This document shows positions 910 to 54,330 of a DNA stretch of 64,000 bases, in pieces; position 1 is the stretch's first letter, and each line of letters opens with the position of its first letter. The notes under the pieces were generated by a model. That model saw nothing but the letters and a program-made list of their open reading frames with translations, made no database searches and was not told the origin of the DNA. The translations under genes were made by a program, and so were the position numbers. Source of the DNA: Saprospiraceae bacterium (lineage in GTDB: Bacteria > Bacteroidota > Bacteroidia > Chitinophagales > Saprospiraceae); assembly GCA_019187225.1 (NCBI GenBank), contig JABAQQ010000008.1:16601-80600 (forward strand), in the 5' to 3' direction.

Positions 910-966
910 GGATTGGGGATTGGGGATTGGGGATTGCGGATTGCGGATTGGGGATTTCGGATTGAG
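910..966. repeat. heptamer microsatellite (GGATTGG/GGATTGC) x8, G/T-rich arm
   Basis: Starts immediately after the yidD TAG. Sequence is gggattggggattggggattggggattgcggattgcggattggggatttcggattgag. Confidence 0.95.
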
Positions 967-1018
967 ACGTGGAAACTGCAGAATTTTGTAGATTTAATCC
1001 TGAAGAATAAAAGTAAAA

Positions 1019-1049
1019 CCAATCCGCAATCCGAAATCCGCAATCCGCA
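1019..1049. repeat. heptamer microsatellite, reverse complement of the 910-966 array (CAATCCG/AAATCCG)
   Basis: Sequence ccaatccgcaatccgaaatccgcaatccgca ends 5 nt before the ATG at 1055. It is the complementary arm to 910-966. Confidence 0.95.
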
Positions 1050-1054
1050 GCAAT

Positions 1055-2137
1055 ATGATCGAACACAAACGCCGCCTGCGCATTGTCGCCAAAAAATGGG
1101 AAACCGCCGACACTGCCACGTTCATCCTCGAACCGGCAGACGGCCTGCTGTTCCATTACAAACCCGGCCAATATTTATCCCTGATCTTTGAAACCGTCAG
1201 CGGCGAAAAACGGCGGGCCTATTCTTTCAGCTCCTGTCCGGGAGTAGATCCGCTGCCGGCCATCACCGTCAAACGGGTACCGAACGGCGAGTTCTCCAAT
1301 TGGTTGCTTTCACATGCCGAACCCGGCGACCTGCTTACTGCCACAGATGCCAACGGTCGCTTTTTATTGCCCGAAATTCAACCGGACACCCTTTTTTATC
1401 TCGCTGCCGGTAGCGGCATTACGCCGGTGATAAGCCATTTAAGAAGTCTCTTTTTTGGCGACGGGGTGACTTCGAGTCACCCCGTCGCTAAACCACAGGT
1501 AGTGCTTTACTACGCCAACCGCGACAGCCGGAATACTATTTTTAAAGGGCAGATTGACCGTTGGATGGATGAATTTCCGGGCCGTTTCGAGTGCACGTAT
1601 TTTTTCAGCCGGGAAAAAAACGCCGCACATGCCCTTCACCGCCACCTGAACAACGAGTTGCTGGAACAACTGTTGCTTCGACATTTCGGCGGCAAGCTCA
1701 CGACCCGTGTCCGGCGCAACACCCAGTTCTATCTCTGCGCGCCGAAGACAATGATGCGTATGGCTGAGATGACCCTGCGCACGTTGGATTTCCCGGAAAA
1801 AAACATCCTTAAAGAAACCTTCGTGCCGGAGACCCGCCTTCCCGTCAGGGTAACGGATCGCTCCAAAACCCACGACATTGTCGCCATTGGGAAAAATGAA
1901 CGCATTGAATTTCAAACGTTTGAAGGAGAAACCATTCTGAATGCAGCGCTGCGCCAGGGTATCGCGTTGCCTTATACATGTAAAAGCGGAGTCTGTTTTA
2001 CCTGCTTGGCAAAATGTACGAAAGGCGAAGTGGAGGTGGTCTTTGTGGACGTTACCCGCCGCGAAGGGCCGGGGAATATGGTGAACACGTGTATCGGGTA
2101 TGCTGTGACGGAAAAGGTGGAATTGTGTTATGAGTAG
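1055..2137 (+). CDS. FAD/NAD(P)-binding oxidoreductase with C-terminal plant-type 2Fe-2S ferredoxin domain (PaaE/ferredoxin-reductase type)
   Basis: FAD motif RAYSFSS, NAD motif AAGSGITP, and C-terminal cysteine cluster CKSGVCFTCLAKC...C. Confidence 0.85.
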   Translation: MIEHKRRLRIVAKKWETADTATFILEPADGLLFHYKPGQYLSLIFETVSGEKRRAYSFSSCPGVDPLPAITVKRVPNGEFSNWLLSHAEPGDLLTATDANGRFLLPEIQPDTLFYLAAGSGITPVISHLRSLFFGDGVTSSHPVAKPQVVLYYANRDSRNTIFKGQIDRWMDEFPGRFECTYFFSREKNAAHALHRHLNNELLEQLLLRHFGGKLTTRVRRNTQFYLCAPKTMMRMAEMTLRTLDFPEKNILKETFVPETRLPVRVTDRSKTHDIVAIGKNERIEFQTFEGETILNAALRQGIALPYTCKSGVCFTCLAKCTKGEVEVVFVDVTRREGPGNMVNTCIGYAVTEKVELCYE

Positions 2138-2240
2138 CAGTGGCAGTGGCAGTGGCAGTGGCAGTAGCAGTGGCAGTGGGCAGTGGCAGTGGGCAGTAGC
2201 AGTGGCAGTGGCAGTAGCAGTAGCAGTGGGCAGTGGCAGT
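2136..2240. repeat. hexamer microsatellite (GCAGTG/GCAGTA, occasional GGCAGTG), about 17 units
   Basis: Runs from the reductase TAG to the stop of the four-helix-bundle gene. Confidence 0.95.
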
Positions 2241-2623
2241 TATTTCTTGGGCAAAAATTTCTCAGGATGATCAATCATACCGCCCAACATTCTGCCAACT
2301 TCCTCATAGCGTTTGATTAAGTCCCTGTGTTTCTCAATGGTAATATAACCGCAATCCTTTGCAAAATCCAGGTGCACCGTGGTTTCACTGGCTTCGCCGT
2401 CAGCATCGGTCATCTTGCTGCGAAAGTGGGCCGGAAAAATTCTTTTGCGATAACCTTCCCCAATATTTCCCGGCACAGCACGAGAAGAGCGGCGTATTTG
2501 GTCCGTGAGAGAATAGGTCTCTTCTTTGGGAAATGTTTTAGCCAAAATGAAAATTTCCATGGCTAGTTCATAAGAGAGTTGATAAACTTTCAGAGAACGA
2601 AAATCATTTGAAGCGTCTTTCAT
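2240..2623 (-). CDS. four-helix-bundle protein (TIGR02436 / 23S rRNA intervening-sequence protein / Avd-like family)
   Basis: 127 aa with typical family features: KVYQLSYELAMEIF, EETYSLTDQIRRSSRAVPGNIGEGY, ETTVHLDFAKDCGYI. Confidence 0.85.
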   Translation of the reverse strand: MKDASNDFRSLKVYQLSYELAMEIFILAKTFPKEETYSLTDQIRRSSRAVPGNIGEGYRKRIFPAHFRSKMTDADGEASETTVHLDFAKDCGYITIEKHRDLIKRYEEVGRMLGGMIDHPEKFLPKK

Positions 2624-2658
2624 ATTGATAAGGATTTAAATGAATAAATTTGTTTGTC

Positions 2659-2803
2659 CGCCACTGCCACTGCCACTGCCACTGCCACTGCCACTGCTAC
2701 TGCCACTGCTACTGCCACTGCTACTGCTACTGCTACTGCCACTGCTACTGCCACTGCCACTGCTACTGCTACTGCCACTGCCACTGCTACTGCCACTGCC
2801 ACT
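2659..2803. repeat. hexamer microsatellite (CCACTG/CTACTG), reverse complement of the 2136-2240 array
   Basis: About 24 units. The last three codons and the stop codon of the gldD ORF lie inside it. Confidence 0.95.
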
Positions 2804-3458
2804 TCAACGTCCCCACCAATCTATCTAAGTCCTTTTTCATAAAAGCGATCACCGGCGCGAGCGAATCGGGGCGGCTCTGCGTGTTGAAATACAAGGCGCC
2901 GCGCAGAAAATTCCGGGTGGAATCGGTCAGGAAAAACTGGTAAGACGAGGCCGCAGCACCTTCCACATTGAAGACAATGCCGTATACCTTATCCTCCGGG
3001 CGGTGCACGTGCAATTCGTCAATATAACTGGCTTTGATATTGTGTTTGTTCGTCATGGCAAATGCATCGGCCACCAGTTCGTCAAAGTCTTTGCGGCTGC
3101 GGATGGGGTTGTAACTGCAATAGATTTTGGCGTTCAGTTGCTTCACGTCGAGATTGAACCAGCATTCGTCCTTTGGCTTCTCATCAAAAAAACTCGTGTC
3201 CTTTTCGATCGTCGCGTAGGCAGGCATCTCGAAGGTGAAATTGCAGTACGACGCATCGAACGGCTTGTATGTTTTTTCCGGGTAAACGACCCGCGGATAG
3301 GCGCGGGGTTTCGGTACGGGGGTGTAGTCTTCGCAGGAAGAAAGTAGCAGTGGCAGTGGCAGTAGCAGTAGCAGTAGCAGTGGCAGTGGCAGTGGCAGTG
3401 GCAATATGGTTCGGAAGAGAGGTATGGAAAATCTGTAATTTGTATTAGTCAAAGTCAT
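2787..3458 (-). CDS. gldD: gliding motility lipoprotein GldD
   Basis: Lipobox LLSSC followed by PKPRAYPRVVYPEKTYKPFDASYCNFTFEMPAYA and the rest of a ~190-aa GldD-like body. Both ends of the ORF run into hexamer arrays. Confidence 0.7.
   Translation of the reverse strand: MTLTNTNYRFSIPLFRTILPLPLPLPLLLLLLLPLPLLLSSCEDYTPVPKPRAYPRVVYPEKTYKPFDASYCNFTFEMPAYATIEKDTSFFDEKPKDECWFNLDVKQLNAKIYCSYNPIRSRKDFDELVADAFAMTNKHNIKASYIDELHVHRPEDKVYGIVFNVEGAAASSYQFFLTDSTRNFLRGALYFNTQSRPDSLAPVIAFMKKDLDRLVGTLKWQWQ
3344..3402. repeat. hexamer microsatellite (GCAGTG/GCAGTA) inside the gldD 5-prime coding region
   Basis: On the minus strand it reads CTG CCA / CTG CTA and encodes LPLPLPLPLLLLLLLPLPLL. Confidence 0.95.
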
Positions 3459-3508
3459 GGTTATGGTATGTGATATGAAGCGTAAAGTTCGTTAAAAAAG
3501 GCAATCCA

Positions 3509-3646
3509 CCTACTGCCACTGCTACTGCCACTGCCACTGCTACTGCCACTGCTACTGCCACTGCCACTGCCACTGCCACTGCTACTGCCACTGCCACTGC
3601 TACTGCCCCTGCTACTGCCACTGCTACTGCCACTGCCACTGCCACT
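3509..3646. repeat. hexamer microsatellite (CCACTG/CTACTG), inverted relative to 3344-3402
   Basis: About 23 units. It starts at the TAG of the upstream endonuclease gene. Confidence 0.95.
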
Positions 3647-4610
3647 ATCTCCTGTTCCACTCTTCCACCCGCTCTTCGTAGCGCCGGCGGTCTACCGGCC
3701 AGGCATCCTTGTCCAGCGAGCCTTCGATCTCTTCGTCCAGACCTTTCAACAAATTCGGAAAAAAATCCAGGCCGGTCAGTTTTTCCACCTGGTCAATCGA
3801 AACGGCGTAGTCCATCACCGGCTTGGTACTCATTTCATTGGGCATCACGAATGCAATGGCTTTGTGTTGCTCCGGGGCATACAGCACTTTGTAGTAAGCG
3901 CCCGGCACAGTCACCTTGCTGAAGCCGATGGCGCCCAGGGGCGTCTGGGGCAGCACGGGACCGGTGACGACGTACAGGTTTTCAAATTTGCGCGCCCAGT
4001 CGCGGGTACATTCTTCGAGTTCGCGCCAGATGCCGCCGTTGAAGGGCCTGAGTTGTGGACTCATATTGCTCATCAGGAAAGTTTCGTCGATGGCGGTGGC
4101 GTCGAAAGCCATATCCGCTGCCGCACAGAGATGGCCTTTGTCGTAGCCGCTGCCGTTGTAATCGCGCGGCGTGGCGCTTTCAGTGCGCACGTCCGGGTCA
4201 GGACGGAAGGTATTGGGGCGTTCTGCCCATTTTTTGTTGAGGCGTTCGCGCGTCAGTTCGTAAGCCACCCATTCGGCCTGTTCGTGGTCTTCGCTGTAGG
4301 AAAGGACGAAGTAGGTATGGCGCACCACCTCGCCGGTAGTGGAAGCCGGTAGAATATTTTCTGGAACGTATGATTTCGGATCGCGGATTCCGGATGGCGG
4401 ATTGTTGTCTGCCGGCAGCTCCGTTTTAGGTTGATTATCCTGGGAATCGGGAGTTTTTTTCCCGGAAAACCGGTTGAAAGCCCAGAAAGCCAGGCTGGCC
4501 AACAGGGCAAAAAGTCCGGTTTTGAACAGGAAGCCTCCGGAGTCGGAAGAAGATTTGCGTCGCGCCATGGGTGAGAGTCGTGCGTTTTTTGAAAAATTTT
4601 GTTGGCGCAA
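3645..4610 (-). CDS. DNA/RNA non-specific endonuclease (Serratia NucA / EndoG family), membrane-anchored or secreted
   Basis: Catalytic region GSGYDKGHLCAAADM with downstream MSNMSPQ (metal Asn). N-terminal hydrophobic segment FLFKTGLFALLASLAFWAF. Confidence 0.85.
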   Translation of the reverse strand: MRQQNFSKNARLSPMARRKSSSDSGGFLFKTGLFALLASLAFWAFNRFSGKKTPDSQDNQPKTELPADNNPPSGIRDPKSYVPENILPASTTGEVVRHTYFVLSYSEDHEQAEWVAYELTRERLNKKWAERPNTFRPDPDVRTESATPRDYNGSGYDKGHLCAAADMAFDATAIDETFLMSNMSPQLRPFNGGIWRELEECTRDWARKFENLYVVTGPVLPQTPLGAIGFSKVTVPGAYYKVLYAPEQHKAIAFVMPNEMSTKPVMDYAVSIDQVEKLTGLDFFPNLLKGLDEEIEGSLDKDAWPVDRRRYEERVEEWNRR

Positions 4611-4645
4611 ACATAAACTTTTTGTTGTGAATCAGGCGGCGATTT

Positions 4646-6997
4646 TTATAGTTTTACCACTTTAATTGTTTTTCCCTGGCTTTCATCTTGTTGAATATAA
4701 AAGAAATAAACGCCGCTGGCAAGCGTGGGGATTAACTCCAAAACAGCTGCTTCCGAATCAATTTGCCCCGATAAAACCTGTCGCCCCGCCACATCGAACA
4801 ACCGCCATTGAGCGGGCAATTGGCGTTCAGGCAAAAGACAGCGCACGAACAAGCGCTCGTGAAACGGATTGGGAAAAACCTCGGCTTGCAACGTTTCGAT
4901 GGGTAAAGCAGGTGTTGGCTGGCCGTCGCGGATTTCTACTGCGTCGAGTCCGACTTCGAGAAAAGATTGATCGAAACCGGAAGTTGTGTCTTTTGCTTCA
5001 AAAACGATTCTCCAGTTGCCCGATTTCACTTCTTCAGGGAGAGCGATGGTTCCGGAGGACGTCCAAACGTATGCAAATTTGTTTCTCGACCATATTTCTT
5101 TCCTGATCGTTTCATTTTCAATAAAAACTGAAAACCGGAGAGAGGTATCCAGGAGAGAACACCAGAATTGAAAATGCAGATCTGGCTGCTGAAATCTGCG
5201 CAGGTCAACTTCCGGAGAAACGAGCCGCACCGTGCCGCCATCCACATCGTAAGTTATTTCACCATAGTTGATGCGAATGTCGGTCAGATAGCATAATTCG
5301 CCCCAATCATCAGGTACATCTTCATCAGGTCCTGGTATAAAAGGCTTAAATTTTTCCAAGATACCCCGCTCCCAAAAACCTTTCTGCGCATCCCCTCCCG
5401 AAGTCCATCCCAAATCAAAATAAAAATCGTCATAATAGCCTCTCTGTAAACGCACTACCGGCGATTCCACAGGGTCCATCCACATCTTTTTCAGCGGCAA
5501 ACGGCCCCATAGGACTGGCAGTACATCGAAACTGTCCGCATACACAATCGGCACTTTGGCCCACCCCTTCGCATCGGTTTTTATCTCAAATTGAAATATC
5601 CCGTTGCGGACAACCACTTTGATGTTGGCAAGCGGTTGATTATCTTCGGCGGCTAAAAACAACATGGACAAGTCTTTTCCGGGTGAGGACAGCGGGACAA
5701 GTTCCACATTGAGCAGCGCCACTTCGCTTGGTTTCAGTTCGGCTTTCTGCAAGACAGGGCGAAAGCCTTCCTTGTAAAAGAGCACCTCAAATTCGCCCGC
5801 TTTAGTTTGTCCAGTCCGGTATTCGCCTTGCGCCGAGGTATGCGGAGGTTCCACCTGATCGCCCTTAAAAATAAGGACTTGTACACCTGAAAGAGGGTTT
5901 TTCGATGTCGCATCCTTAACGGTTCCTTCCAGGTAGCAGGCGCGAATGTAGGCGGGCGTGAGTACGAACAAGCCCTGTTCGATGTCGCTTATCAGCGTAT
6001 TGCCCGACGGAAGATAAGGATAGTTGCCCCAGGAGCCATTATAACCGTCACCTTCAAGCGGGCAGGTGTCGTAGTGTCCGACCTGAACAGCGTTTTCCGG
6101 GCGGGTCAGATCGAGCAAAATGAGGCCGTCGCGGTACCAGGAGACGAAAGCAAAGTCATTTAGAATGAAAGCGTTGTGTGGTACCGATCCGCTACCGGGC
6201 GTCGGGCGGAAACGGCTCACTTCGCGGATGTCTTCCAAGTCGCCTGTTTCCCAAATGGAAGCGAAACCGTTGCTGACTTCGTCGGTTGCTATCAGGTGTC
6301 GGCGATCGCGGGTAGGCCAGGTGTTGTGCGGGAATTTACCGGGCGTTTCAAAGGTAGAAAGCACGATGGGGTTCGATTTGTCGTGCATATCCACCACTGC
6401 GACAAAGCCTTCGTAAATATGTGCCGCAAACAAAGTGTCGTTGCCGGCATAACCGTCGTGGATGCCGCCTAATTCATCGTAAAAACCGGCAAAAACAGGA
6501 GAAAAGGGTTGGGATGATATCTTAAATATCCAGGATCGCGTACTGCCGCCATCATTCAGATACAACACCCCGGCAGCAGTATCCACATGCAGGGTATGTC
6601 CGCGCGTCTGTTTTCCTCCCGCATAGTTGATCTCCTTTTTCGGATAACTTGCAGGAAGCGTATCCGGCAAGGCAGACAAGTCATATATTACCAATCCCGG
6701 CCCCGATTCTGCACACACATAAGCAACATGTTGAAAGGTACGCACTTCTTTCCCCCAGTCGTCGGTCATGGGCAGACTGACAATATGCGATGGCACATCG
6801 GGGTCGGTCACTTCTACAATATGCAGGTTTTTGGCGCCCGCCACCAGAGCATATTCCCTTCCGGCCTTTTCATATCCCCACACGCCGGATATTTTTTCAT
6901 TGGGAAATGTAAATTGAGATCGCAGCGTGAAGTTGGAATTTTGAGCAAACGACTGCGCAGCGTAAAGGAGCAGAAAATGAAGGATAAACTTTTTCAT
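4646..6997 (-). CDS. LVIVD-repeat / choice-of-anchor-B-like beta-propeller protein with T9SS C-terminal sorting domain
   Basis: Signal peptide MKKFILHFLLLYAAQSFAQ. Repeats include GLVIYDLS, GFVAVVDM and GLILLDLT. The C terminus VFPNPFHERLFV...GVYFFYIQ...KVVKL is typical of a T9SS CTD. Confidence 0.7.
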   Translation of the reverse strand: MKKFILHFLLLYAAQSFAQNSNFTLRSQFTFPNEKISGVWGYEKAGREYALVAGAKNLHIVEVTDPDVPSHIVSLPMTDDWGKEVRTFQHVAYVCAESGPGLVIYDLSALPDTLPASYPKKEINYAGGKQTRGHTLHVDTAAGVLYLNDGGSTRSWIFKISSQPFSPVFAGFYDELGGIHDGYAGNDTLFAAHIYEGFVAVVDMHDKSNPIVLSTFETPGKFPHNTWPTRDRRHLIATDEVSNGFASIWETGDLEDIREVSRFRPTPGSGSVPHNAFILNDFAFVSWYRDGLILLDLTRPENAVQVGHYDTCPLEGDGYNGSWGNYPYLPSGNTLISDIEQGLFVLTPAYIRACYLEGTVKDATSKNPLSGVQVLIFKGDQVEPPHTSAQGEYRTGQTKAGEFEVLFYKEGFRPVLQKAELKPSEVALLNVELVPLSSPGKDLSMLFLAAEDNQPLANIKVVVRNGIFQFEIKTDAKGWAKVPIVYADSFDVLPVLWGRLPLKKMWMDPVESPVVRLQRGYYDDFYFDLGWTSGGDAQKGFWERGILEKFKPFIPGPDEDVPDDWGELCYLTDIRINYGEITYDVDGGTVRLVSPEVDLRRFQQPDLHFQFWCSLLDTSLRFSVFIENETIRKEIWSRNKFAYVWTSSGTIALPEEVKSGNWRIVFEAKDTTSGFDQSFLEVGLDAVEIRDGQPTPALPIETLQAEVFPNPFHERLFVRCLLPERQLPAQWRLFDVAGRQVLSGQIDSEAAVLELIPTLASGVYFFYIQQDESQGKTIKVVKL

Positions 6998-7119
6998 AGG
7001 TCAATGATTTTGGTCGCCTGAAAGTAAGGAAAACACCATTCTTGTGCCCCAAAATTCACCGTGTATCGAGTGAACGCCGCCTTTGAGGGTGTGAATCCAC
7101 CTTTTTTCAAATTCAAAAT

Positions 7120-7149
7120 TTGCAAAAACGAAATGGAGGCTTACCTTTG
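7120..7149 (+). promoter_or_regulatory. Bacteroidota sigma-A type promoter (-33 TTG, -7 TACCTTTG) for the tRNA
   Basis: TTG at 7120-7122, a 19-nt spacer, then TACCTTTG at 7142-7149, which matches TAnnTTTG. The tRNA starts 16 nt downstream. Confidence 0.55.
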
Positions 7150-7164
7150 CACCCGCTTTCAAAA

Positions 7165-7241
7165 GGCGCGATAGCTCAGCCGGTTAGAGCGTGCGATTCA
7201 TAATCGCAAGGTCGGGAGTTCAAGTCTCCCTCGCGCTACCA
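7165..7241 (+). tRNA. tRNA with CAU anticodon (elongator Met, or Ile2 if lysidine-modified); CCA encoded
   Basis: Hand-folded cloverleaf: acceptor GGCGCGA/TCGCGCT, D arm GCTC/GAGC, anticodon stem TGCGA/TCGCA with loop TTCATAA, T arm GGGAG/CTCCC, then ACCA. It lacks the initiator GGG:CCC anticodon stem. Confidence 0.9.
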
Positions 7242-7246
7242 TCTTA

Positions 7247-7279
7247 ACGCAGGTTTCACGACGAAGCCTGCGTTTTTTA
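7247..7279 (+). terminator. rho-independent terminator after the tRNA
   Basis: Stem CGCAGG...CCTGCG is followed by TTTTTTATTT. Confidence 0.7.
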
Positions 7280-7414
7280 TTTGTGCGAACAACGCAAAAA
7301 GCAGGCACTCCATCGGCAAGCAAAGGCAATACGTCCAAAATCCCGGCACTCTTTGCCAATCCTGGTGTTCATAGGCGCAAGAAATACAACCTTTGTCCCG
7401 TAAACCTGCAAGCC

Positions 7415-8479
7415 ATGCGTTTTACCGCCACCCTCCACGACCGCAACCAAAACAGCGCCGCCCCCGTCACCGTCCGGACGGAACCGGGGGTGTTGTTTAT
7501 CGAACTCGAAAATGGGCATATTCTCGACTGGACATTGAGCGATCTCGATTCCGCGCGGGCCCTGGAGGATGGATCTTACATTCTGCAGAACGGCAAACGA
7601 TTCCTCGAAGTGACCGATCCCGGTTTTCGCGCAGGTCTGGAGCGGAGTTTCCCAAAAAACAAGCTGTTCCGGCACACTTTTTTCGACCGGATCGGATTTG
7701 CGGGATGCCTCGTGGCCATCGCGGGCATCCTGGCGCCGCTGCTGGTGCTGTACTTCTTCATTGCGCCCCGGATTGTGGAAAAAGCCGCTGAAAAAGTGCC
7801 GCCGGAGATAGAAAAACAGATCGGCGATACGTGGTTTCATTCCCTTACCGCCGCATACAGAACGGACACGGCTCTCACCCGGCTCGTGCAGCAATTCTAT
7901 GATTCACTCGGCTATGGCAGCGACTATACCATGCGCATCACCGTTGTCAGCGAGCCGGTCGTCAATGCCTTCGCCGTGCCGGGCGGCCATATCGTGGTGT
8001 TCGACAGCATCATCGGCATCATGGATGCGCCGGAACAATTAGCCGCATTGCTGGCGCACGAGGCGAGCCACATCCAACTCAAACATTCCACCCGCTCCAT
8101 TTTCCGGGAATTGGCCAACAGCCTGATGTTCAGCCTGATGCTCGGCGACTACGGAGACTTCAGCGCCATTGTGGCGCGGCACGGCGACGAATTGGCCGGA
8201 CTTTCCTATTCACGCAAACTCGAATTCGAGGCCGACGAAAACGGAATGGAACTGATGTTCGCCAGCGGCATTCCTCTGCACGGCATGGCGGATCTGTTCC
8301 GGAGAATGAAAATGGCACAGGAAAACGGGCACAACGACGTGCCGGATTTTCTCAGCACCCATCCGTCCATGGAAGAGCGACTCGGCGTTGTCGAACAAAA
8401 AATCAAGGAACGGGGTGAGAGCAGCCGCAAAGCGAACGCCAGCCTGTACCGGATCTGGCAGGAAATCAAACGCCAGTGA
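7415..8479 (+). CDS. M48 family metallopeptidase, membrane-associated
   Basis: HExxH motif LLAHEASHIQLKH, downstream EFEADENG, and a TM segment FAGCLVAIAGILAPLLVLYFFIA. The start is placed at ATG 7415 because the 7283 extension overlaps the tRNA terminator. Confidence 0.8.
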   Translation: MRFTATLHDRNQNSAAPVTVRTEPGVLFIELENGHILDWTLSDLDSARALEDGSYILQNGKRFLEVTDPGFRAGLERSFPKNKLFRHTFFDRIGFAGCLVAIAGILAPLLVLYFFIAPRIVEKAAEKVPPEIEKQIGDTWFHSLTAAYRTDTALTRLVQQFYDSLGYGSDYTMRITVVSEPVVNAFAVPGGHIVVFDSIIGIMDAPEQLAALLAHEASHIQLKHSTRSIFRELANSLMFSLMLGDYGDFSAIVARHGDELAGLSYSRKLEFEADENGMELMFASGIPLHGMADLFRRMKMAQENGHNDVPDFLSTHPSMEERLGVVEQKIKERGESSRKANASLYRIWQEIKRQ

Positions 8480-9159: not shown

Positions 9160-9186
9160 TGGATTGCGGATTGCGGATTGCGGAGG
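9160..9186. repeat. heptamer microsatellite (GGATTGC) x3-4
   Basis: Sequence tggattgcggattgcggattgcggagg lies directly next to the rhomboid start codon, between rhomboid and rnpA. Confidence 0.9.
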
Positions 9187-18258: not shown

Positions 18259-18308
18259 GGGGAGGATGCTTTTTTTCAGGAATCACGGTGTTAAGTACAT
18301 GGACAATA

Positions 18309-18418
18309 GATTTTTGACATTGGACATTTGACCAAATGATTGGTTGTCAGGGTCAAACGTCCAATATCCAATGTCCAATGTCGATTTATTTTGTCCGCTT
18401 ACTTATCTGTCATTTTCT
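18309..18418. repeat. dispersed ~100-nt intergenic element, copy 1 (second copy at 48246-48340)
   Basis: gatttttgacattggacatttgaccaaatgattggttgtcagggtcaaacgtccaa...tcgatttattttgtccgcttacttat aligns with the second copy at roughly 90 percent identity, apart from one 7-nt indel. Confidence 0.8.
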
Positions 18419-20463: not shown

Positions 20464-20524
20464 GTCCACCGTCAGGTACCGTCTACCTTCTACCATCCAC
20501 CGTCTACCATCCACCGTCTACCGT
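20464..20524. repeat. heptamer microsatellite (GTCCACC/GTCTACC), C-rich orientation
   Basis: gtccaccgtcaggtaccgtctaccttctaccatccaccgtctaccatccaccgtctaccgt ends 2 nt before the ATG at 20527. Confidence 0.9.
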
Positions 20525-22903: not shown

Positions 22904-22932
22904 GAATGATGAATGATGAATGATGAATGATG
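22904..22932. repeat. heptamer microsatellite (GAATGAT) x4
   Basis: gaatgatgaatgatgaatgatgaatgatg lies between the scpB stop and the DUF2480 start. Confidence 0.9.
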
Positions 22933-23542: not shown

Positions 23543-23557
23543 AGGGCAAAGGTAAAA

Positions 23558-23620
23558 TGGGGATTTGGGATTTGGGATTGGGGATTTGGGATTGCGGATT
23601 GCGGATTTGGGATTGCGGAT
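23558..23620. repeat. heptamer microsatellite (GGATTTG/GGATTGG/GGATTGC) x9
   Basis: It lies in the spacer between the scpB start (23542) and the DUF4382 stop (23621) and fills all of it except the first 15 nt. Confidence 0.95.
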
Positions 23621-24130
23621 TTACTTCACTTTGATCACCGGCTTCAGAATATAGGCGCCGTTACCGGTTTCGACGATGGACTGCTCCGCGTCGAAGTCAA
23701 AAATGAGTGTGTTGATATCGAGGTTGAGGTTCTTGTCCACCTTGATCTTCAGGCCGGACTGTTGGGCGCTGGGCGTCGTGAGCGGGTACAACACGCTGTC
23801 TATCATGACGGTATTGCTGTCGCCGAGGACGAAGCGAACTTCCTTGAGCGCAACAGGCGCATTCAATGTGTCGGTAGCAACCAGGGTGTCTACTCCGTTT
23901 TGCAGTTGGAGCAGGTCATAAATGCCGGCAGCAGTGTTCAACGTAATCCATTGGGAGGTGTCATCGGAAGTTTTGATGCGGACTTCCCTGATGTCCACGT
24001 TCACCTGCTGGTAGTCACCGGGACCGTCGGTGAGTCGGATGTTGAGTGCGACGGCCTCTTTATCGTCCTTGTTGCAGGCAAAGAAAGCGATTAAACCGAG
24101 TGCGCATGTGATTAACAGTGTTTTTTTCAT
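23621..24130 (-). CDS. DUF4382 domain lipoprotein
   Basis: MKKTLLITCALGLIAFFACNKDD (lipobox), followed by LNIRLTDGPGDYQQVNVDIREVRIK. Confidence 0.55.
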   Translation of the reverse strand: MKKTLLITCALGLIAFFACNKDDKEAVALNIRLTDGPGDYQQVNVDIREVRIKTSDDTSQWITLNTAAGIYDLLQLQNGVDTLVATDTLNAPVALKEVRFVLGDSNTVMIDSVLYPLTTPSAQQSGLKIKVDKNLNLDINTLIFDFDAEQSIVETGNGAYILKPVIKVK

Positions 24131-26540: not shown

Positions 26541-26612
26541 TAAAAATAGCCCTTCCTCTTTGTTGGCAAATTTAAAGTCGGCGAAATGTCGGCGGTCAGT
26601 CAGAATTGTCGC

Positions 26613-26649
26613 AAAAAACGGTTGCCCCCGCGCCTGGCGAGAGCAACCG
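26613..26649 (-). terminator. rho-independent terminator after the M23 peptidase gene
   Basis: On the minus strand, CGGTTGC, a loop, GCAACCG, then TTTTTT. Confidence 0.6.
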
Positions 26650-26697
26650 TCCGAATAATTCCTGCTCTGAATTTTATACGCCGAAACTCATCCCGCT

Positions 26698-34070: not shown

Positions 34071-34236
34071 AGACGTTGGACTATTGGACGTTGGACTATT
34101 GGACGTTGGACTATTGGACGTTGGACTATTGGACGTTGGATTTTTGGGCGTTGGACTATTGGACGTTGGATTTTTGGACGTTGGATTTTTGGACGTTGGA
34201 TTTTTGGACTATTGGACGTTGGACTATTGGACGTTG
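34071..34236. repeat. 7/8-nt microsatellite (ACGTTGG/ACTATTGG/ATTTTTGG), G/T-rich arm
   Basis: About 22 units, starting 7 nt from the GT87-like start codon. Confidence 0.95.
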
Positions 34237-34261: not shown

Positions 34262-34326
34262 AACGTCCAAAGTCGAATAGTCCAACGTCTAATAATCCAA
34301 CATCCAATAGTCCGATAATCCAATAT
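34262..34326. repeat. same family in reverse-complement orientation (CCAACGT/CCAATAGT)
   Basis: aacgtccaaagtcgaatagtccaacgtctaataatccaacatccaatagtccgataatccaatat ends at the DUF6438 stop codon. Confidence 0.9.
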
Positions 34327-35039
34327 CAATTCCGATCCTTAGCGGGCATATTGGTTTGCACTTCCACGACGCCGTCCATGTCTTTTAACACGTCAATCAG
34401 CGCCTTTTCTTCGATCTGTTTCGGATCGAAAGCCACGATCCAAATGTTTTCAGCGGAAATACGGCGCACGAGGCGGAGTTTGAACTCGGTGAACTGGTTG
34501 ACCCAGTTGCCTGCATTTACGTCGGGTTTGAGTTGGACGATGACTTCTTTCATGGTACCTGAAGGCGGCGAGTTTGGGTTGATGCCGCGTTTGAGTTGAA
34601 GACCGTGCGCTTCGGCGAGGTCTTTAAGCAGTCCTTCGAGTTCGAGCAAAGGCGCCGGCCGATCAATGGAGCCGCGCACCGTTTTGCTTTTTTCTCCTTC
34701 ATAGGCGATCAAAGTGGCAAACGGCGCATCCACGACATCGGTCTTGATCATATCGGGGTATTGCCAGAGATTCACCGATTGAATTTTTTCCTTCAACTGT
34801 TTGAGTTCCGTCCGGGTGAGGTAAAACGAGTCTTTGCCCACTTTTTCCACAAAACGTTCGCCGTTGTACCGCACAAAACCATTGTTCAACACCTCCAGTT
34901 TGAATACCGGACAGAAACCGAAACAGGGACCGGTTTCGAGGCTGACGAGGTTGGATGCGTCGCCGCCGGGCGATTTTTTTTTGCACTTTTCGGCGGAAAA
35001 AAACGCAAGAGCGGAGAGAAAGAACAAGAGGGTTTTCAT
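34326..35039 (-). CDS. DUF6438-like lipoprotein
   Basis: Signal and lipobox region FFSAEKC, then ETGPCFGFCPVFKLEVLNNGFVRYNGERF. Confidence 0.5.
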   Translation of the reverse strand: MKTLLFFLSALAFFSAEKCKKKSPGGDASNLVSLETGPCFGFCPVFKLEVLNNGFVRYNGERFVEKVGKDSFYLTRTELKQLKEKIQSVNLWQYPDMIKTDVVDAPFATLIAYEGEKSKTVRGSIDRPAPLLELEGLLKDLAEAHGLQLKRGINPNSPPSGTMKEVIVQLKPDVNAGNWVNQFTEFKLRLVRRISAENIWIVAFDPKQIEEKALIDVLKDMDGVVEVQTNMPAKDRN

Positions 35040-40122: not shown

Positions 40123-40226
40123 GGTTATTTGTTAATTTGCTGATTGGGTGATTTGGTTATTTGTTGATTGAGCGAAAATCGTCCTTTTATTACATGTTGT
40201 AAACAATAGTCCGACCGAAACCGGCA

Positions 40227-41410: not shown

Positions 41411-41551
41411 TAGACGTTGGATTTTTAGACGTTGGACTGTTGGACGTTGGACGTTGGACTATTGGATGTTGGACTGTTGGACTATTGGATGTTGGACTGT
41501 TGGACATTAGATGTTGGATGATGGGTGTTGGATAATTGGACGTTGGATTTT
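41411..41551. repeat. 7/8-nt microsatellite (ACGTTGG/ACTGTTGG/ATGTTGG), G/T-rich arm
   Basis: About 18 units, beginning 12 nt from the SH3 gene start codon. Confidence 0.95.
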
Positions 41552-41722: not shown

Positions 41723-41794
41723 AATCCAACAATCCAACGTCCAATAGTCCAACGTCCAGCGTCTAAAAATCCAACGTCCAACAGTCCAACGTCC
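41723..41794. repeat. same family in reverse-complement orientation
   Basis: aatccaacaatccaacgtccaatagtccaacgtccagcgtctaaaaatccaacgtccaacagtccaacgtcc ends 8 nt before the next stop codon. Confidence 0.9.
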
Positions 41795-42580: not shown

Positions 42581-44518
<1,938 letters not shown>

Positions 44519-44911
44519 AGCGGGCGCAAAGGTAGGGATTCTGCGCTGCTATTCGGGTAGCGGCTCTACTTTCACATAATCGAAAAAAGGGCCTTGACGA
44601 TCGGTATCCGGCACCTTCCACCAGGTGTTTACTGGGTACAAATCATTGGAAACGACGGTATCCGATTCGGCAAGTTCATCAAACAGTAGAAAACATTAGG
44701 CCGATTATAACCGGGCAACTCGGGCGATCGCTCGTGGTGCCCTTTTTGTCATGAAAATCAATGTCATTTTATTGACACTGTTCATTGGCACACATCCGCT
44801 TTGTGTCCGGGTATACAATAGGGATCATTTCGTATTTTTGCGCCAACTTTCCGGCAATGAACATACCCGACGAAATGAAGGGTGAAACCGTCCCGAAATA
44901 GGTCTTTTTCA

Positions 44912-48029: not shown

Positions 48030-48090
48030 ATGTAGGCGCTCCCGTCTTTTTCAATTAGTTTTGCCCCGATTTTTTAAAACAAATAATCAG

Positions 48091-48208
48091 ACATTGGACT
48101 TTTGACAATTGGACATTGGACTTTTGACAATTGGACATTGGACTTTTGACATTTGGACATTGGACTTTTGACATTTGGACATTGGACTTTTGACATTTGG
48201 ACATTGGA
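48091..48208. repeat. tandem 22-nt repeat (CATTGGACTTTTGACAWTTGGA) x5
   Basis: acattggacttttgacaattgg is repeated five times with A/T variation at one position. Confidence 0.9.
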
Positions 48209-48245
48209 AGTGTCTGTTTTTTTAACTGTAAGTACATTGACAATG

Positions 48246-48340
48246 GATTTTTGACATTGGACATTTGACCAAATGATTGGTTTTCAAGGTCAAACGTCCA
48301 AAGTCTAACGTCAATTTATTTTGTCCAATTACTTATATCT
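48246..48340. repeat. dispersed ~100-nt intergenic element, copy 2 (see 18309-18418)
   Basis: gatttttgacattggacatttgaccaaatgattggttttcaaggtcaaacgtccaaagtctaacgtcaatttattttgtccaattacttat. Confidence 0.8.
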
Positions 48341-50892: not shown

Positions 50893-52287
50893 ATGAAAGA
50901 ACTGAAAAAGTATTTTGAAGCCAACAAAGACCGCTTTCTCGACGAACTGCTCGAACTGCTGCGCATTCCTTCCGTGAGCGCCGACCCGAAATACAAGGGC
51001 GACGTGCGCCGCATGGCCGAAGCCACCGCTCAGCACCTCCGCAATGTGGGCGCCGACTCGGTGGAAATCTGCGAAACCGACGGCCACCCCATCGTTTATG
51101 CCGAAAAAATGGTGAACCCGAAAGCGCCGACCGTGCTCGTGTACGGCCACTACGACGTGCAGCCGCCGGATCCGCTCGACCTTTGGGACAGCCCACCGTT
51201 CGAGCCGGTGGTGAAAAAAACGAAATTGCACCCGCAGGGCGCCATTTTCGCCCGCGGCGCCTGCGACGACAAAGGACAGTTTTTCATACACGTCAAGGCT
51301 TTTGAAATGATGCTGAAAAACAACGTATTGCCCTGCAATGTAAAGTTTATGATAGAAGGCGAGGAAGAAGTCGGCTCGAAGAACTTAGAGAAATTCTGCA
51401 AGGACAACAAAAAGAAACTCGCCTGCAATGTGGTGCTGATCTCCGACACCAGCGTCATCGCCAACGACACGCCCAGCCTCACCGTCGGGTTGCGCGGTCT
51501 GTGCTACATGGAAGTGGAAGTGACGGGGCCGAATAAAGACCTGCACTCCGGCGTCTACGGCGGCGCAGTGGCCAATCCGGTCAATGTACTGTGCCAAATG
51601 ATCGCTTCTTTGCACGATTCGAAGCGACATGTCACCGTCAAAGGTTTTTACGACGACGTGAAAAAAGTGAGCGCCAAGGAGCGCAAAATGATGAACGAAG
51701 CGCCCTACGATGAAAAACAATACATGAAAGACCTCGGCGTGAACGAACTGATGGGCGAAAAAGGCTACACCACCATCGAACGCACCGGCATCCGCCCGAC
51801 GCTGGATGTGAACGGTATCTGGGGCGGTTACACCGGCGAAGGCGCCAAAACGGTATTGCCCTCCAAGGCATTTGCCAAGATCTCCATGCGCCTCGTGCCC
51901 GACCAGGACCCGAAGAAAATCGAAAAATTATTCCAGAAACACTTCGAGAGCCTCGCGCCCAAGTCGGTCAAAGTCAGGGTTACGGCCCATCACGGCGGCT
52001 GGCCGGTGGTGGTGCCCACCAACTCGGTGGAGTACAAAGCCTCCGAAAAAGCGATGGAACTGGCTTATGGCAAAAAGCCCCTGCCCCAGCGCGGCGGCGG
52101 CAGCATCCCGATCGTAGCGATGTTCGACCAGGTACTCGGCGCCAAATCCGTGCTCATGGGCTTCGGCCTCGATTCGGACGACATTCACTCGCCCAACGAG
52201 CATTATGGCCTGTTCAACTACTACAAAGGCATCGAGACGATTCCGTATTTCTACAAGTTCTATTCGGAAATGAAGAAGAAAAAATAA
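50893..52287 (+). CDS. M20 family dipeptidase/metallo-hydrolase
   Basis: ELLRIPSVSADP, VLVYGHYDVQP, ARGACDDKGQ, MIEGEEEVGS, HSPNEH. Confidence 0.85.
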   Translation: MKELKKYFEANKDRFLDELLELLRIPSVSADPKYKGDVRRMAEATAQHLRNVGADSVEICETDGHPIVYAEKMVNPKAPTVLVYGHYDVQPPDPLDLWDSPPFEPVVKKTKLHPQGAIFARGACDDKGQFFIHVKAFEMMLKNNVLPCNVKFMIEGEEEVGSKNLEKFCKDNKKKLACNVVLISDTSVIANDTPSLTVGLRGLCYMEVEVTGPNKDLHSGVYGGAVANPVNVLCQMIASLHDSKRHVTVKGFYDDVKKVSAKERKMMNEAPYDEKQYMKDLGVNELMGEKGYTTIERTGIRPTLDVNGIWGGYTGEGAKTVLPSKAFAKISMRLVPDQDPKKIEKLFQKHFESLAPKSVKVRVTAHHGGWPVVVPTNSVEYKASEKAMELAYGKKPLPQRGGGSIPIVAMFDQVLGAKSVLMGFGLDSDDIHSPNEHYGLFNYYKGIETIPYFYKFYSEMKKKK

Positions 52288-52342
52288 CCCGAAACCCGTT
52301 AACCCGAAACCCGGAACTCGTTAACCCGAAACCCGTTAACCT
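52286..52342. repeat. short tandem repeat (AACCCGAAACCCGTT-type)
   Basis: aacccgaaacccgttaacccgaaacccggaactcgttaacccgaaacccgttaacc lies directly after the stop codon. Confidence 0.85.
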
Positions 52343-52389
52343 ATTTGTCTAACTCACTCAAATTCAACAACCGTATTACACATTCGATC

Positions 52390-53064
52390 ATGAAAAAAAC
52401 GCTTTTGCTGCTCTTCGTTGCGGCCATGACCACGGGGCTGTTCGCCCAATCCAAAGTGACGCTGACCAACGCCAAAGACAGCGCCAGTTACGCTTACGGC
52501 ATCGTTCTGGCCAACAGCATCAAACGCCAACTGAGCAGCGACCTCAGCCGCGACGTGCTCATTGCCGCGTTGAACGGCGCGCTAAAAGACGAAAACATGC
52601 TTTTCACGCCTGAAGCAGCCAATAAAATATTCAGCGATTACAACCGCGCCATGCAAGCGAAAGCGAGCGAAAGGATCCGCAAGGAAGGTCAGGAATTCCT
52701 GGAACAGAACAAAAAACGCAAGGAAGTGACCACCACTGCCAGCGGCCTGCAATACGAAGTGCTGAAACGCGGCACGGGCACGGAATCGCCCAAAGAGACC
52801 GACAAGGTGGAAGTGCACTACCACGGCACGCTCATCAACGGCGAAGTGTTCGACAGCAGCGTCGAACGCGGCCAGCCGGCCCAATTCGGCCTCAACCAGG
52901 TGATCAAAGGCTGGACCGAAGGCTTGCAATACATGAAAGAAGGCGACAAGTTCAAATTCTACCTTCCGGCAGACCTGGCCTACGGCGAGCGCAGCGCAGG
53001 CGCCAAGATCAAACCCGGCTCCACTTTGGTCTTCGAAGTGGAACTGTTGAAAATATTGAAATAA
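52390..53064 (+). CDS. FKBP-type peptidyl-prolyl cis-trans isomerase (Mip/FkpA-like)
   Basis: Signal peptide, helical N-domain, and an FKBP core: VEVHYHGTLINGEVFDSS, NQVIKGWTEGLQYMKEGDK, PGSTLVFEVELL. Confidence 0.9.
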   Translation: MKKTLLLLFVAAMTTGLFAQSKVTLTNAKDSASYAYGIVLANSIKRQLSSDLSRDVLIAALNGALKDENMLFTPEAANKIFSDYNRAMQAKASERIRKEGQEFLEQNKKRKEVTTTASGLQYEVLKRGTGTESPKETDKVEVHYHGTLINGEVFDSSVERGQPAQFGLNQVIKGWTEGLQYMKEGDKFKFYLPADLAYGERSAGAKIKPGSTLVFEVELLKILK

Positions 53065-53067
53065 AAC

Positions 53068-53139
53068 CAGTTTGCAGTGGGCAGTGGCAGTTTGCAGTGG
53101 CAGTGGCAGTGGCAGTGGGCAGTTTGCAGTGGGCAGTAG
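53068..53139. repeat. hexamer/heptamer microsatellite (GCAGTG, GGGCAGT, TTTGCAGTG), G/T-rich arm
   Basis: Starts 4 nt after the FKBP stop. Confidence 0.95.
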
Positions 53140-53171
53140 TCAACGTGCAGCAACAATACATGAAGCGAGCT

Positions 53172-53308
53172 AACTGCCCGCTGCCCAGTGCAAACTGCCC
53201 ACTGCCACTGCAAACTGCCACTGCCCACTGCCACTGCCCACTGCCCACTGCCCACTGCCACTGCCCACTGCCCACTGCCACTGCAAATTGCCACTGCAAA
53301 CTGCTACT
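53172..53308. repeat. same family in reverse-complement orientation (CCACTG/CCCACTG/CAAACTG)
   Basis: Ends exactly at the ATG at 53309. Confidence 0.95.
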
Positions 53309-53956
53309 ATGAACAACCTCCACTACCGGGCCATCATAATGGTGTTGATCTATGTCGTTCTGCGTTTTTTCGGCGGGTCGTTCGGCAACTTCGTGTTGTA
53401 TCCGGTGACGTTACTGGTCACCTTTTTACACGAATTCGGCCACGCGCTGGGGGCGATCCTGACCGGCGGCGCCGTAAGCGGCATGCAGATCAATCCCGAC
53501 GGCAGCGGCTACACCGTTACGCAGGGCGGCAGCCCGGGGGTGGTGCTCATGGGCGGCTACCTCGGCAGCGCACTGCTGGGCAACATCCTGTTCCGCATCG
53601 GCGCCCGGCACCCTTCGTTTACCCGGGTGACGCTCCTGACCTTGTCGTGCCTCATGGTACTGGCTGGCGTGGTGTGGTTCGAGTCGTTCGGCAGCACTGC
53701 CCTCCTGCTGGGATTTGCCGCTTTGTTGTTCGTCGTCGCGTGCAATACCGATTGGGGTCAGGACGTGCTGATGTTCCTCGGCCTCGCTGCCGTGCTCTAC
53801 ATCATTCAGGATTTCAACGTGGGGCCGCAAAGCGACCTGGCGATGTACGAACAGGAAGTCGGGGTTTTCCCTTCACACGTATGGATGTATGTGTGGTTGG
53901 GTGTCGCAGGGGCGTTGTTTTATCTGAATATCAGGGAGATTTTCGGTAGACGGTAG
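53309..53956 (+). CDS. M50-like membrane metallopeptidase
   Basis: HExxH in a TM helix (TFLHEFGHALGAILTGG). Five or six TM segments. Confidence 0.7.
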   Translation: MNNLHYRAIIMVLIYVVLRFFGGSFGNFVLYPVTLLVTFLHEFGHALGAILTGGAVSGMQINPDGSGYTVTQGGSPGVVLMGGYLGSALLGNILFRIGARHPSFTRVTLLTLSCLMVLAGVVWFESFGSTALLLGFAALLFVVACNTDWGQDVLMFLGLAAVLYIIQDFNVGPQSDLAMYEQEVGVFPSHVWMYVWLGVAGALFYLNIREIFGRR

Positions 53957-53987
53957 ACGGTGGACGGTGGACGGTGGACGGTGGACG
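53945..53987. repeat. heptamer microsatellite (GGTAGAC/GGTGGAC) x6, G-rich arm
   Basis: It overlaps the last codons and the TAG of the M50-like gene. Confidence 0.95.
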
Positions 53988-54097
53988 AAATTTGAGCAAG
54001 AAAACTTATCTGATTGTCTGTCAATAATTTTTTTCAAAAATTGCATTTTTAACCTTCAGGAAACGCCAGACTAATTAACGCGAGCCCTACCCACCGT

Positions 54098-54210
54098 AGG
54101 AACAATGGGAACGCAGATGACGCGGATCAGGCGGATTTTCACAGATTTTCATCTGCTCGCAATCCGTTTTCATCCGCCCAATTCGCGTCATCTGCGTTCC
54201 CATTGTTCCT
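54098..54210. mobile_element. MITE-like palindromic element, family 1 (GATGACGCGGATCAGGCGGATTTTCACAGAT core), copy 1
   Basis: Arms aggaacaatgggaacgcagatgacgcg and cgcgtcatctgcgttcccattgttcct. The core is shared with 56371-56467. No coding capacity. Confidence 0.7.
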
Positions 54211-54259
54211 GCGAAAGGCAAGTCACAACCTGCATTGATTAAATTGGATTGGATGTGAT

Positions 54260-54330
54260 CTACCGTCCACCGTCCACCGTCCACCGTCTACCGTCCACCG
54301 TCCACCGTCCACCGTCCACCGTCCACCGTC
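54260..54330. repeat. heptamer microsatellite (GTCCACC/GTCTACC) x10, C-rich arm
   Basis: Ends exactly at the ATG at 54331. Confidence 0.95.

Follow-up and report, generated by a model that had tools for sequence, protein, structure and literature searches.

In Beggiatoaceae, Cyanobacteria and a few Bacteroidetes, heptamer arrays that lie close to start codons in a preferred orientation (TAACTGA) are already known (PMC4679880). The other closely related system is the intervening sequence (IVS) of 23S rRNA, which carries an S23p open reading frame (ORF) in Coxiella and Leptospira; rRNA IVSs are cut by RNase III, transcribed by the host and regarded as selfish, horizontally spread elements (PMC4990558). 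Here, 64,000 nucleotides of the Saprospiraceae bacterium assembly GCA_019187225.1 (contig JABAQQ010000008.1, positions 16,601 to 80,600 of the forward strand), hereafter the window, were analysed in follow-up of an earlier note on the same DNA. The window contains arrays of 6-8-nt units set in intergenic spacers as inverted pairs, one of which encloses a gene for a four-helix-bundle (4HB) protein of the IVS type. Such arrays form the arms of palindromic repeat elements that occupy intergenic spacers between co-directional genes in this Haliscomenobacteraceae lineage, and the GCAGTR family forms the terminal inverted arms of a widespread cassette with a promoterless-looking 4HB gene. We hold this account of what the elements and the cassette are with good confidence, and regard the explanation as a whole, palindromic microsatellite-armed elements together with an IVS-like cassette family, as probable. 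The earlier note knew of no described system at gene boundaries. That statement does not extend to start-proximal, biased heptamers, which were known (PMC4679880), and stands for the inverted same-family pairs of fixed polarity and their tie to the 4HB cassette, of which literature searches returned no description.

Arrays were called with Tandem Repeats Finder (TRF) and by direct reading of the sequence, and neighbouring arrays were merged before counting. The window held 29 merged arrays totalling 1,969 nt, whereas thirty third-order Markov simulations produced a mean of 1.5 arrays (45 nt) and a maximum of 5. The arrays are thus head-to-tail repeats in the sense used for long simple sequence repeats (LSSR) and cyanobacterial STRR repeats (5-11-nt units, longer than composition predicts). 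Intergenic DNA is 12.6% of the window, yet it holds 85% of the array bases, so that arrays constitute 21% of intergenic DNA. The assignment of the arrays to spacers in the earlier note was accordingly correct for most of them and not for all, since pair 2 encloses a gene and further arrays lie inside ORFs. Besides the four families named there (GGATTGS, GCAGTG, ACGTTGG and GGTGGAC types), the families GACATTG/GACTTTTG, AACCCGW, GAATGAT and GTGAGAG were found. The arrays resemble the LSSR, STRR and TAACTGA repeats in unit length (5-11 nt, mostly heptamers), mostly intergenic location, variable copy number, placement a few nucleotides from start codons in a preferred orientation (19/20 G-poor in the sense of the gene in the window and the 9 kb upstream), and tolerance within ORFs of units with a length that is a multiple of three. 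They differ in unit sequence, no TAACTGA array being present in the TRF output for the window, and in their inverted same-family pairs, long hairpins and fixed polarity with the G-rich arm first (G-first). The BOGUAY genome, unlike the window, has 169 direct sets and one inverted (PMC4679880), and none of those repeats is known to be associated with a gene cassette.

Eight spacers contained a G-rich array, a loop and a complementary C-rich array, with predicted stems of 25-105 bp. In each pair the right arm is the reverse complement of the left arm, with one family per pair, and the predicted arm-arm duplexes of 25-105 bp (-26 to -218 kcal/mol) were each stronger than those with a shuffled arm. 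In pair 1, the G-rich arm (GGGATTG x8, 909-964) starts 1 nt past the yidD stop codon and the C-rich arm (CAATCCG x4.3, 1020-1049) ends 5 nt short of the ATG at 1055. Pair 2, the cassette, has arms at 2133-2240 and 2660-2803 with GCAGTR and YACTGC units, respectively, on the plus strand. The arms of pair 3 lie at 3343-3403, reading (CCACTG/CTACTG)n in the gldD sense, and at 3512-3646, beginning at the stop codon of the endonuclease gene 3645..4568(-). The G-rich arm of pair 4 (GACGTTG/GACTATTG units, 34072-34236) lies 8 nt from the start of a GT87 gene (-), and its C-rich arm (34265-34336) overlaps the stop codon of a DUF6438 gene (-). Pair 5 has its G-rich arm (41411-41548) 11-16 nt from the true start (41399) of an SH3 gene (-) and its C-rich arm (41723-41794) 8 nt from the stop codon of a 173-aa gene (-). 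In pair 6, the G-rich arm (GCAGTG/GGCAGTG/GCAGTTT, 53068-53137) starts 3 nt past the FKBP stop codon and the last base of the C-rich arm (53172-53308) directly precedes the ATG at 53309; likewise, in pair 7 the G-rich arm (GACGGTG, 53944-53987) includes the stop codon of an M50B peptidase gene and the C-rich arm (54262-54330) directly precedes the ATG at 54331. Pair 8 was absent from the earlier list and consists of a GACATTG/GACTTTTG G-rich array (48090-48208) in a divergent spacer and a short C-rich arm (48285-48312). The sister assembly GCA_021404605.1 (contig QWGW01000032.1, 98-100% identical to the window) has a ninth large pair at 6597-6669 / 6677-6730 of locus L217, shortly upstream of the window.

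All seven pairs of the earlier note were therefore present, each within a few nucleotides of where it had been placed, and the proposal that inverted arrays can form hairpins hugging start and stop codons was borne out by the long predicted duplexes and by the many arrays 0-5 nt from an ATG. The arms of a pair are unequal in length, for example 165 versus 72 nt. Array-bearing spacers have co-directional flanking genes in all but two cases, namely a divergent one at 48 kb and a convergent one that holds the cassette. Since the four hexamer arrays over 2133-3646 alternate G, C, G, C, the array at 2660-2803 could equally pair across gldD with that at 3343-3403, which would reverse the order of the arms.

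The loop of pair 2 contains a gene (2240..2623, minus strand) encoding a 127-aa 4HB protein that matched PF05635 (23S_rRNA_IVP) with 109.4 bits (cut-off 33.8) and TIGR02436 with 102.6 bits (cut-off 24). Its nearest solved structure was XCC0516 (PDB 2gsc, E = 3e-10). In the sense of the 4HB gene, the array 2660-2803 is the upstream G-rich arm, located 36 nt before the ATG and also providing the final codons and stop codon of gldD, and the array 2133-2240 is the downstream C-rich arm, which abuts the 4HB stop codon and overlaps the TAG of a ferredoxin-reductase gene. The cassette thus reads (GGCAGT)n, 36 nt, ORF, (ACTGCC)n, and its arms have a predicted stem of 105 bp and -218 kcal/mol. The same layout surrounded homologues in metagenome-assembled genomes (MAGs) of Lewinellaceae, Calditrichia and a Bacteroidetes bacterium of 35% GC, as well as a frameshifted 4HB copy in a Prevotellaceae MAG.

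In a metagenome scan, 80 close relatives of the 4HB gene were obtained (62-85% identity, host GC 29-60%), of which 67 distinct loci had adequate flanks for statistics with random windows from the same loci as controls. A GCAG-rich upstream flank was present in 56/67 loci, a CTGC-rich downstream flank in 53/67 and both in 45/67, whereas the reversed arm type occurred at 3 loci on each side and only ~3% of control windows qualified (6/163 for the GCAG type and 5/163 for the CTGC type). Unit variants of the two arms co-vary within a locus, e.g. GGCAGG with CCTGCC, and arms from the same locus paired better than arms from different loci (-63.8 versus -52.7 kcal/mol, p = 0.0017). The median anatomy over 62 loci was upstream stop codon, 11 nt, G-arm, 41 nt, ATG to stop codon of the 4HB gene, 8 nt, C-arm, 15 nt and ATG of the next gene, with a typical arm of ~24 nt compared to 136 and 103 nt in the window. 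The upstream neighbour was co-directional with the 4HB gene in 56/59 loci and the downstream neighbour in 52/63. Whole-cassette minimum free energy and centroid folds of two other cassettes closed through the arms (z = -5.3 and -8.6). One cassette was inserted between rsfS and rlmH, which are adjacent in E. coli, and in another the arms had been absorbed into the reading frames of the neighbouring genes. Relatives of the 4HB gene were not found in viral contigs. Extra arms were seen in two loci, arranged G-C-gene-G-C in L139 (2820-3665) and G-gene-G-loop-C in L219 (3379-3483), allowing alternative pairings that include or exclude the 4HB ORF.

The cassette has the architecture of a 23S rRNA intervening sequence moved to spacers between protein genes and equipped with tandem-repeat arms. 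It shares with the IVS the cargo family (PF05635/TIGR02436) and an ORF bounded by complementary termini that form a closing stem, 28 bp in Coxiella (PMC4990558). It differs in location, lying between protein genes and not in helix 9, 25 or 45 of 23S rRNA; a check of the window and of 20 cassette loci revealed no rRNA. It also differs in having arms of GCAGTR-type tandem hexamer or heptamer arrays that are conserved across phyla. Excision by RNase III is known for the IVS and is a prediction for the cassette. The accessory protein Avd of diversity-generating retroelements belongs to the same fold family (PF22296 bAvd-like, 44 bits; NF033474 match); the NF033474 score was 36.3 bits against an equivalog cut-off of 80, and neither a reverse transcriptase nor a template or variable repeat was found nearby. 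Integron cassettes, too, combine a small ORF without an obvious promoter, read in the direction of upstream transcription, with an imperfect inverted repeat that can fold into a hairpin. In the 4HB cassette, by contrast, the repeat halves flank both sides of the ORF, and no integrase, attI or cassette array was seen in the gene list of the window. The resemblance of GTTGGAC to the integron core site GTTRRRY was discounted as a chance match expected among so many units and permutations. At least 7,900 homologues were scored in a database search, and PF05635 genes are known so far only as found in rRNA intervening sequences and as Avd-like. The arms, the flush insertion and the co-orientation with upstream genes provide a testable model for such genes, that of an operon-hitchhiking cassette which closes itself with a stem, and the model may also account for the origin of IVS elements.

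In all seven pairs of the earlier note the G/T-rich arm is on the left, which was taken to point to selection or a directional mechanism. Since an element of G-arm, loop and C-arm reverse-complements to itself, its polarity is unaffected by the orientation of insertion, and because polarity is invariant to flipping the seven sites are not seven independent trials; with fewer than seven independent families, 7/7 is weak when taken alone (two-sided p = 0.016). Polarity was recorded for adjacent inverted same-family arrays no more than 300 nt apart in loci fetched for other reasons, namely those with (GCAGTR)5 or (GGATTGS)4 on either strand and the flanks of 4HB loci; the (GCAGTR)5 contig scan gave at least 116 loci, mostly from unrelated taxa and with about 10 of use. 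Outside this lineage, 26 pairs were G-first, 1 was C-first and 6 were ambiguous; by locus, 13 were purely G-first and 1 contained an exception. When scored as GT-rich versus CA-rich, 18 pairs had the GT-rich arm first, 6 second and 9 were ambiguous. That variable fits the window and misclassifies purine-rich units elsewhere, and it was replaced by the cleaner G-versus-C skew. The G-first polarity is real and general and is a property of the element rather than of each site, so that of the earlier proposal the non-randomness stands (26 of 27 skewed pairs elsewhere) and the independence of the sites does not. A further C-first case outside the census was a Flavobacterium hairpin (L118) followed by a T-run, which resembles a terminator.

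An equivalent, gene-centred rule is that arrays next to start codons are rich in C and poor in G in the sense of the gene, and those following stop codons are rich in G. Over the window and the 9 kb upstream, 19/20 arrays within ~60 nt upstream of host start codons were G-poor in sense, the sole exception, at 10177, being a weak 9-mer. For the 4HB gene the upstream side does carry the G-arm, but 36 nt away. Unpaired arrays lying between a stop and a start codon obeyed the start-codon rule and not the stop-codon rule. Array-free leaders contained 15% G at -40 to -1 versus 26% overall in the genome. Bacteroidetes do not use Shine-Dalgarno sequences, and initiation is tuned by mRNA structure with unstructured leaders (PMC6847099), with which the G-depleted leaders fit. 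A further contig, L253 (IMG/VR UViG_3300037843_000663; 14.2 kb, 65% GC), contained 35 arrays in 14 kb. Seven successive spacers of it each have a G-first hairpin of AGGAGTT/CTCCTAA units, in which a Shine-Dalgarno-like sequence is paired with an anti-Shine-Dalgarno-like one. Since these G-first hairpins carry AGGAG units, translation without Shine-Dalgarno sequences is not the sole reason for the polarity. G-quadruplexes were rejected as an explanation, G3 runs being confined to the GGGATTK family.

The window and the sister assembly differed by 11 indels and 100 single-nucleotide polymorphisms (SNPs), of which 72 fell within the first 8 kb. Six indels were changes in array copy number, all within the diverged 8 kb (-7, net -19, -42 and -54 nt); among them, the C-rich arm of pair 1 had one unit fewer and the arm 3512-3646 was shorter by 54 nt (9 units) in the sister assembly. 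The array 23558-23622 was shorter by 21 nt, or 3 heptamers, in a 96%-identical strain. These results answer the comparison of close strains that the earlier note had called for: arm lengths change between strains by whole units, as expected of slippage. The region from 10 to 56 kb was nearly free of SNPs, and none of its ~20 arrays differed. Since ~20 arrays were unchanged over 46 kb, the arrays are unstable in whole units, though less so than contingency loci would be.

The one large difference within the SNP-free part was a 112-bp insertion at 18291-18402, a hairpin with GACATTG-type arms (-41 kcal/mol) resembling a miniature inverted-repeat transposable element (MITE). It was missing from GCA_021404605.1 and from an independent Logan contig of the same population. 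The element ends with TAAGTA...TACTTA, imperfect terminal inverted repeats, with TTA duplicated at the junction, and a second copy at 48226-48336 carries the C-rich arm of pair 8. The 112-bp element is a MITE-like insertion polymorphism with microsatellite arms, and as a polymorphic member with a second copy it shows that the elements are inserted DNA. As with REP/REPIN sequences and MITEs, the elements are short, non-coding, hairpin-forming palindromes, intergenic and in many copies, with insertion polymorphism for the 112-bp member; it is the only one in which inverted termini, target duplication, copies and polymorphism were found together. They differ from those repeats in having microsatellite arms that expand to more than 100 nt and large pairs without recognisable termini or target duplications, and, for REP/REPIN, in that no RAYT or transposase was seen among the annotated genes of ~70 kb. 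Matches to Rfam-type RNA families at gathering thresholds were limited to a tRNA, the hairpins matching no family; sub-threshold matches were to eukaryotic miRNA-precursor models, that is, to generic hairpins. CRISPR was rejected, as the repeats lack unique spacers between them.

The elements also invade ORFs where the reading frame allows. An in-frame, perfect (GGCAGT)10.5 array (42821-42883, minus strand) in an ABC-F ATPase gene (42581..44518) encodes a (Gly-Ser)10 interdomain linker before the C-terminal coiled-coil domain of this Uup/EttA-like protein. In gldD, the hydrophobic Leu/Pro-rich core of the lipoprotein signal peptide (LPLPLPLLLLLLLPLPLLLSSC; window 3343-3458, minus strand) is specified by the C-rich arm of pair 3. 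An ATG in the loop is in frame with the lipobox cysteine of GldD, as it also is in a species whose GldD is 88% identical (L133 2238-2390); here a repeat arm has been recruited as coding sequence. A decayed GACGGTG-type array (55496-55544, plus strand) lies in the N-terminal part of a PrmC/HemK-like methyltransferase ORF, and in-frame or decayed arrays also occur in ORFs at 33124-33152 and 4372-4403, the decayed arrays being located in the PrmC-like methyltransferase, the GT87 protein and an endonuclease linker. No heptamers were placed within a reading frame such that a different copy number would turn the gene off. In practical terms, arrays can become coding sequence, as for the signal-peptide core and the Gly-Ser linker.

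The arrays in ORFs, the family flanking the cassette and the one small recent insertion indicate invasive repeats rather than a dedicated gene-boundary signal. The opposite view, that each pair was selected at its site as a processing, terminator or insulator signal or a translational-coupling device, with the arrays merely building the stem, would explain why long stems abut stop and start codons, why pair 3 keeps its position in a species with ~80-88% protein identity, why cassette arms remain complementary as unit sequence shifts between loci, and why one clear C-first hairpin precedes a T-run in the manner of a terminator. We consider it unlikely, since arm lengths are unequal (165 versus 72 nt) and vary among strains, many arrays are unpaired and some lie within ORFs, the genes concerned are unrelated housekeeping genes, most arrays are missing from close relatives, the site of the recent insertion functions without it in sister strains, and no Rfam family was matched. 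Nor do the hairpins form intrinsic terminators, as the C-rich arms run directly into ATG codons without a T-run. The notion of contingency (phase-variation) loci, in which start-proximal copy number switches or tunes the adjacent gene, draws on arrays that abut start codons and differ in copy number among strains and on precedents in Moraxella, where 5' leader repeats tune expression (reviewed in PMC4679880), and in Nostoc, where heptamer repeats affect recF/recO expression (bioRxiv 10.1101/2022.06.06.494920). It is most improbable here given ~20 arrays all unchanged over 46 kb that are nearly SNP-free, adjacent genes of housekeeping rather than surface-variation type, and heptamers not placed in frame for on/off switching.

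Growth of arrays in place by slippage under weak repair, with pairs and polarity arising by chance or from a few ancestral arrays and with neither mobility nor function, accounts for length differences in multiples of the repeat unit and for the occupation of otherwise free spacer DNA; heptamer-rich genomes are known and have been ascribed to slippage (Mrazek 2007, as summarised in PMC4679880). Slippage alone, however, cannot account for eight spacers that each hold a family together with its own reverse complement, and it leaves unexplained the 26-to-1 G-first bias in unrelated organisms, the GCAG/CTGC arms around one gene family across phyla at 29-60% GC, and the 112-bp insertion; it is improbable as a full account. 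An artefact, with the arrays or their inverted layout produced by misassembly of repeats, might be suggested by short-read contigs of the same population, which end inside arrays. It can hardly be credited, since identical arrays and flanks were present in two independent assemblies and also in a related species, and dozens of unrelated metagenomes, as well as long-read MAGs, show the cassette layout.

Several observations weigh against the invasive, cassette-related origin that we favour. Transposase, RAYT, integrase and reverse transcriptase genes were all absent from the Pfam-annotated genes of the window and flanks (~70 kb), the large heptamer pairs had neither a target-site duplication nor conserved termini, and the 4HB cassette itself was not seen as a presence/absence polymorphism. 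In a related species (~80-88% protein identity), the cassette and pair 3 occupy the same site and are thus old and stable there. In related Saprospiraceae loci the cassette has short arms and other arrays are nearly absent, so that the long hexamer and heptamer bloom is lineage-specific and heptamers are linked to the cassette by analogy only. The polarity census counts several pairs per contig, the score by locus being 13 versus 1-2. Unpaired C-rich arrays of up to 65 nt exist upstream of genes, which runs counter to the Rho argument given below, and a hairpin reaching the start codon should inhibit initiation without Shine-Dalgarno sequences unless it is opened or cleaved. The heptamer hairpins are like the cassette in architecture and polarity only. 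No gene was found inside heptamer loops in the window or in 35 heptamer-rich contigs, and the idea that heptamer families are arms of other 4HB paralogues was rejected, there being no such gene in any heptamer loop examined.

The location of the hairpins relative to promoters was also considered. Exact Bacteroidota -7 boxes (TAnnTTTG) were found upstream of many array-free genes and of a tRNA gene, and none was present in any pair loop; the possibility that loops carry the promoter of the downstream gene was unsupported, apart from a near-match in the gldD loop. Since the spacers are co-directional and the loops lack -7 boxes, the array hairpins are most likely internal to operons, which also explains the small room for promoters and terminators remarked on in the earlier note. 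Exact boxes at 23547-23554, 44527-44534 and 48027-34 (all on the minus strand) end 4-9 nt before the ATG of the scpB, ABC-F and PDDEXK genes, which would imply leaderless or near-leaderless mRNAs; at scpB, the C-rich array would then be located upstream of the promoter and not in the leader.

Candidate roles at the RNA level are closure of the insert, processing by RNase III and avoidance of Rho; these roles and the cause of the polarity are proposed tentatively, as a model that we would sooner question than assert. The elements would be transcribed within host operons and the stem would close off the insert. Because the arms are flush with both, the stem would join the upstream stop codon to the downstream start codon, which could preserve translational coupling or permit clean excision. 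Insertion might thereby be tolerated, by analogy with the IVS stem that restores the rRNA helix, and the stem would be a likely RNase III substrate that frees the 4HB mRNA. Rho loading classically requires long C-rich, G-poor single-stranded RNA. With the C-first order, transcription would produce the C-rich, G-poor arm before its partner and leave it single-stranded until the partner emerged, offering a Rho loading site, and a G-rich repeat would directly precede the start codon downstream. With the G-first order, the C-rich arm would be captured on emergence, and only G-first elements would be expected to spread. The rule is simple and strand-independent and, if Rho avoidance or the leader constraint is true, applies to palindromic repeats generally. 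A broader proposal, which is doubtful when all of its parts are taken jointly, is that the 4HB gene with its GCAGTR/YACTGC arms is an undescribed, phylum-crossing selfish cassette, an 'intervening sequence' between protein genes. It would hold that the arms form a self-closing RNA stem processed by RNase III, that they serve as portable homology or hairpin substrates for entering new spacers, with gene-less array hairpins as non-autonomous relatives or landing pads, and that G-first polarity is a general bacterial constraint on transcribed palindromes through Rho and leader needs.

The four unpaired arrays of the earlier note were all found. That at 9161-9184 lies 1 nt upstream of the start of a rhomboid gene (-) and is G-poor in the gene sense; a C-rich array at approximately 20465-20524 ends 2 nt short of the ATG at 20527; a GAATGAT array (22904-22932) upstream of a DUF2480 gene (-) is G-free in the gene sense; and the GGGATTK array at 23558-23622, between DUF4382 and scpB (both -), is C-rich in the gene sense. 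Further unpaired arrays were a G/T-rich one (40123-40170) abutting the start of a Cys/Met-metabolism gene (-) and an AACCCGW array (52285-52335) between the M20 peptidase stop codon and the FKBP start codon (both +); a GTGAGAG-type array (63935-63970) abuts the start (63934) of a 463-aa gene (-). Array-adjacent genes are unrelated housekeeping genes, e.g. rhomboid, ABC transporters, scpB and peptidases. Gene calls and Pfam annotation of the sister contig mapped onto the window revealed a neighbourhood of ordinary housekeeping, gliding-motility and type IX secretion system (T9SS) genes.

Arrays break short-read assemblies and cause false gene calls, with ORFs in arrays and extended starts. Public gene calls were misled at 934, 3404, 41507 and 53009-53275; the starts of the ferredoxin reductase and the SH3 protein had been extended into arrays, and an 88-aa ORF had been called wholly within pair 6. 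A second, unrelated family of palindromic repeats of ~90-120 nt (GGGAACGCAGATGACGCGG...CGCGTCATCTGCGTTCCC) was present at 54095-54213, nested in the loop of pair 7, and at 56374-56464, after the methyltransferase gene. The clustering of SNPs in 1-8000 against near identity at 10000-56000 suggests a recombination mosaic or a chimeric population assembly. At ~24400-26694, a gene for a 714-aa BNR/T9SS protein was wholly missing from the 96%-identical strain (L015, Logan DRR774217 contig). An in-frame segment of 1,311 bp (5233-6543) distinguishes a T9SS-cargo (Por_Secre_tail) gene encoding 783 aa in the window from its counterpart of 346 aa in the sister assembly, a difference that resembles variation in domain-repeat number.

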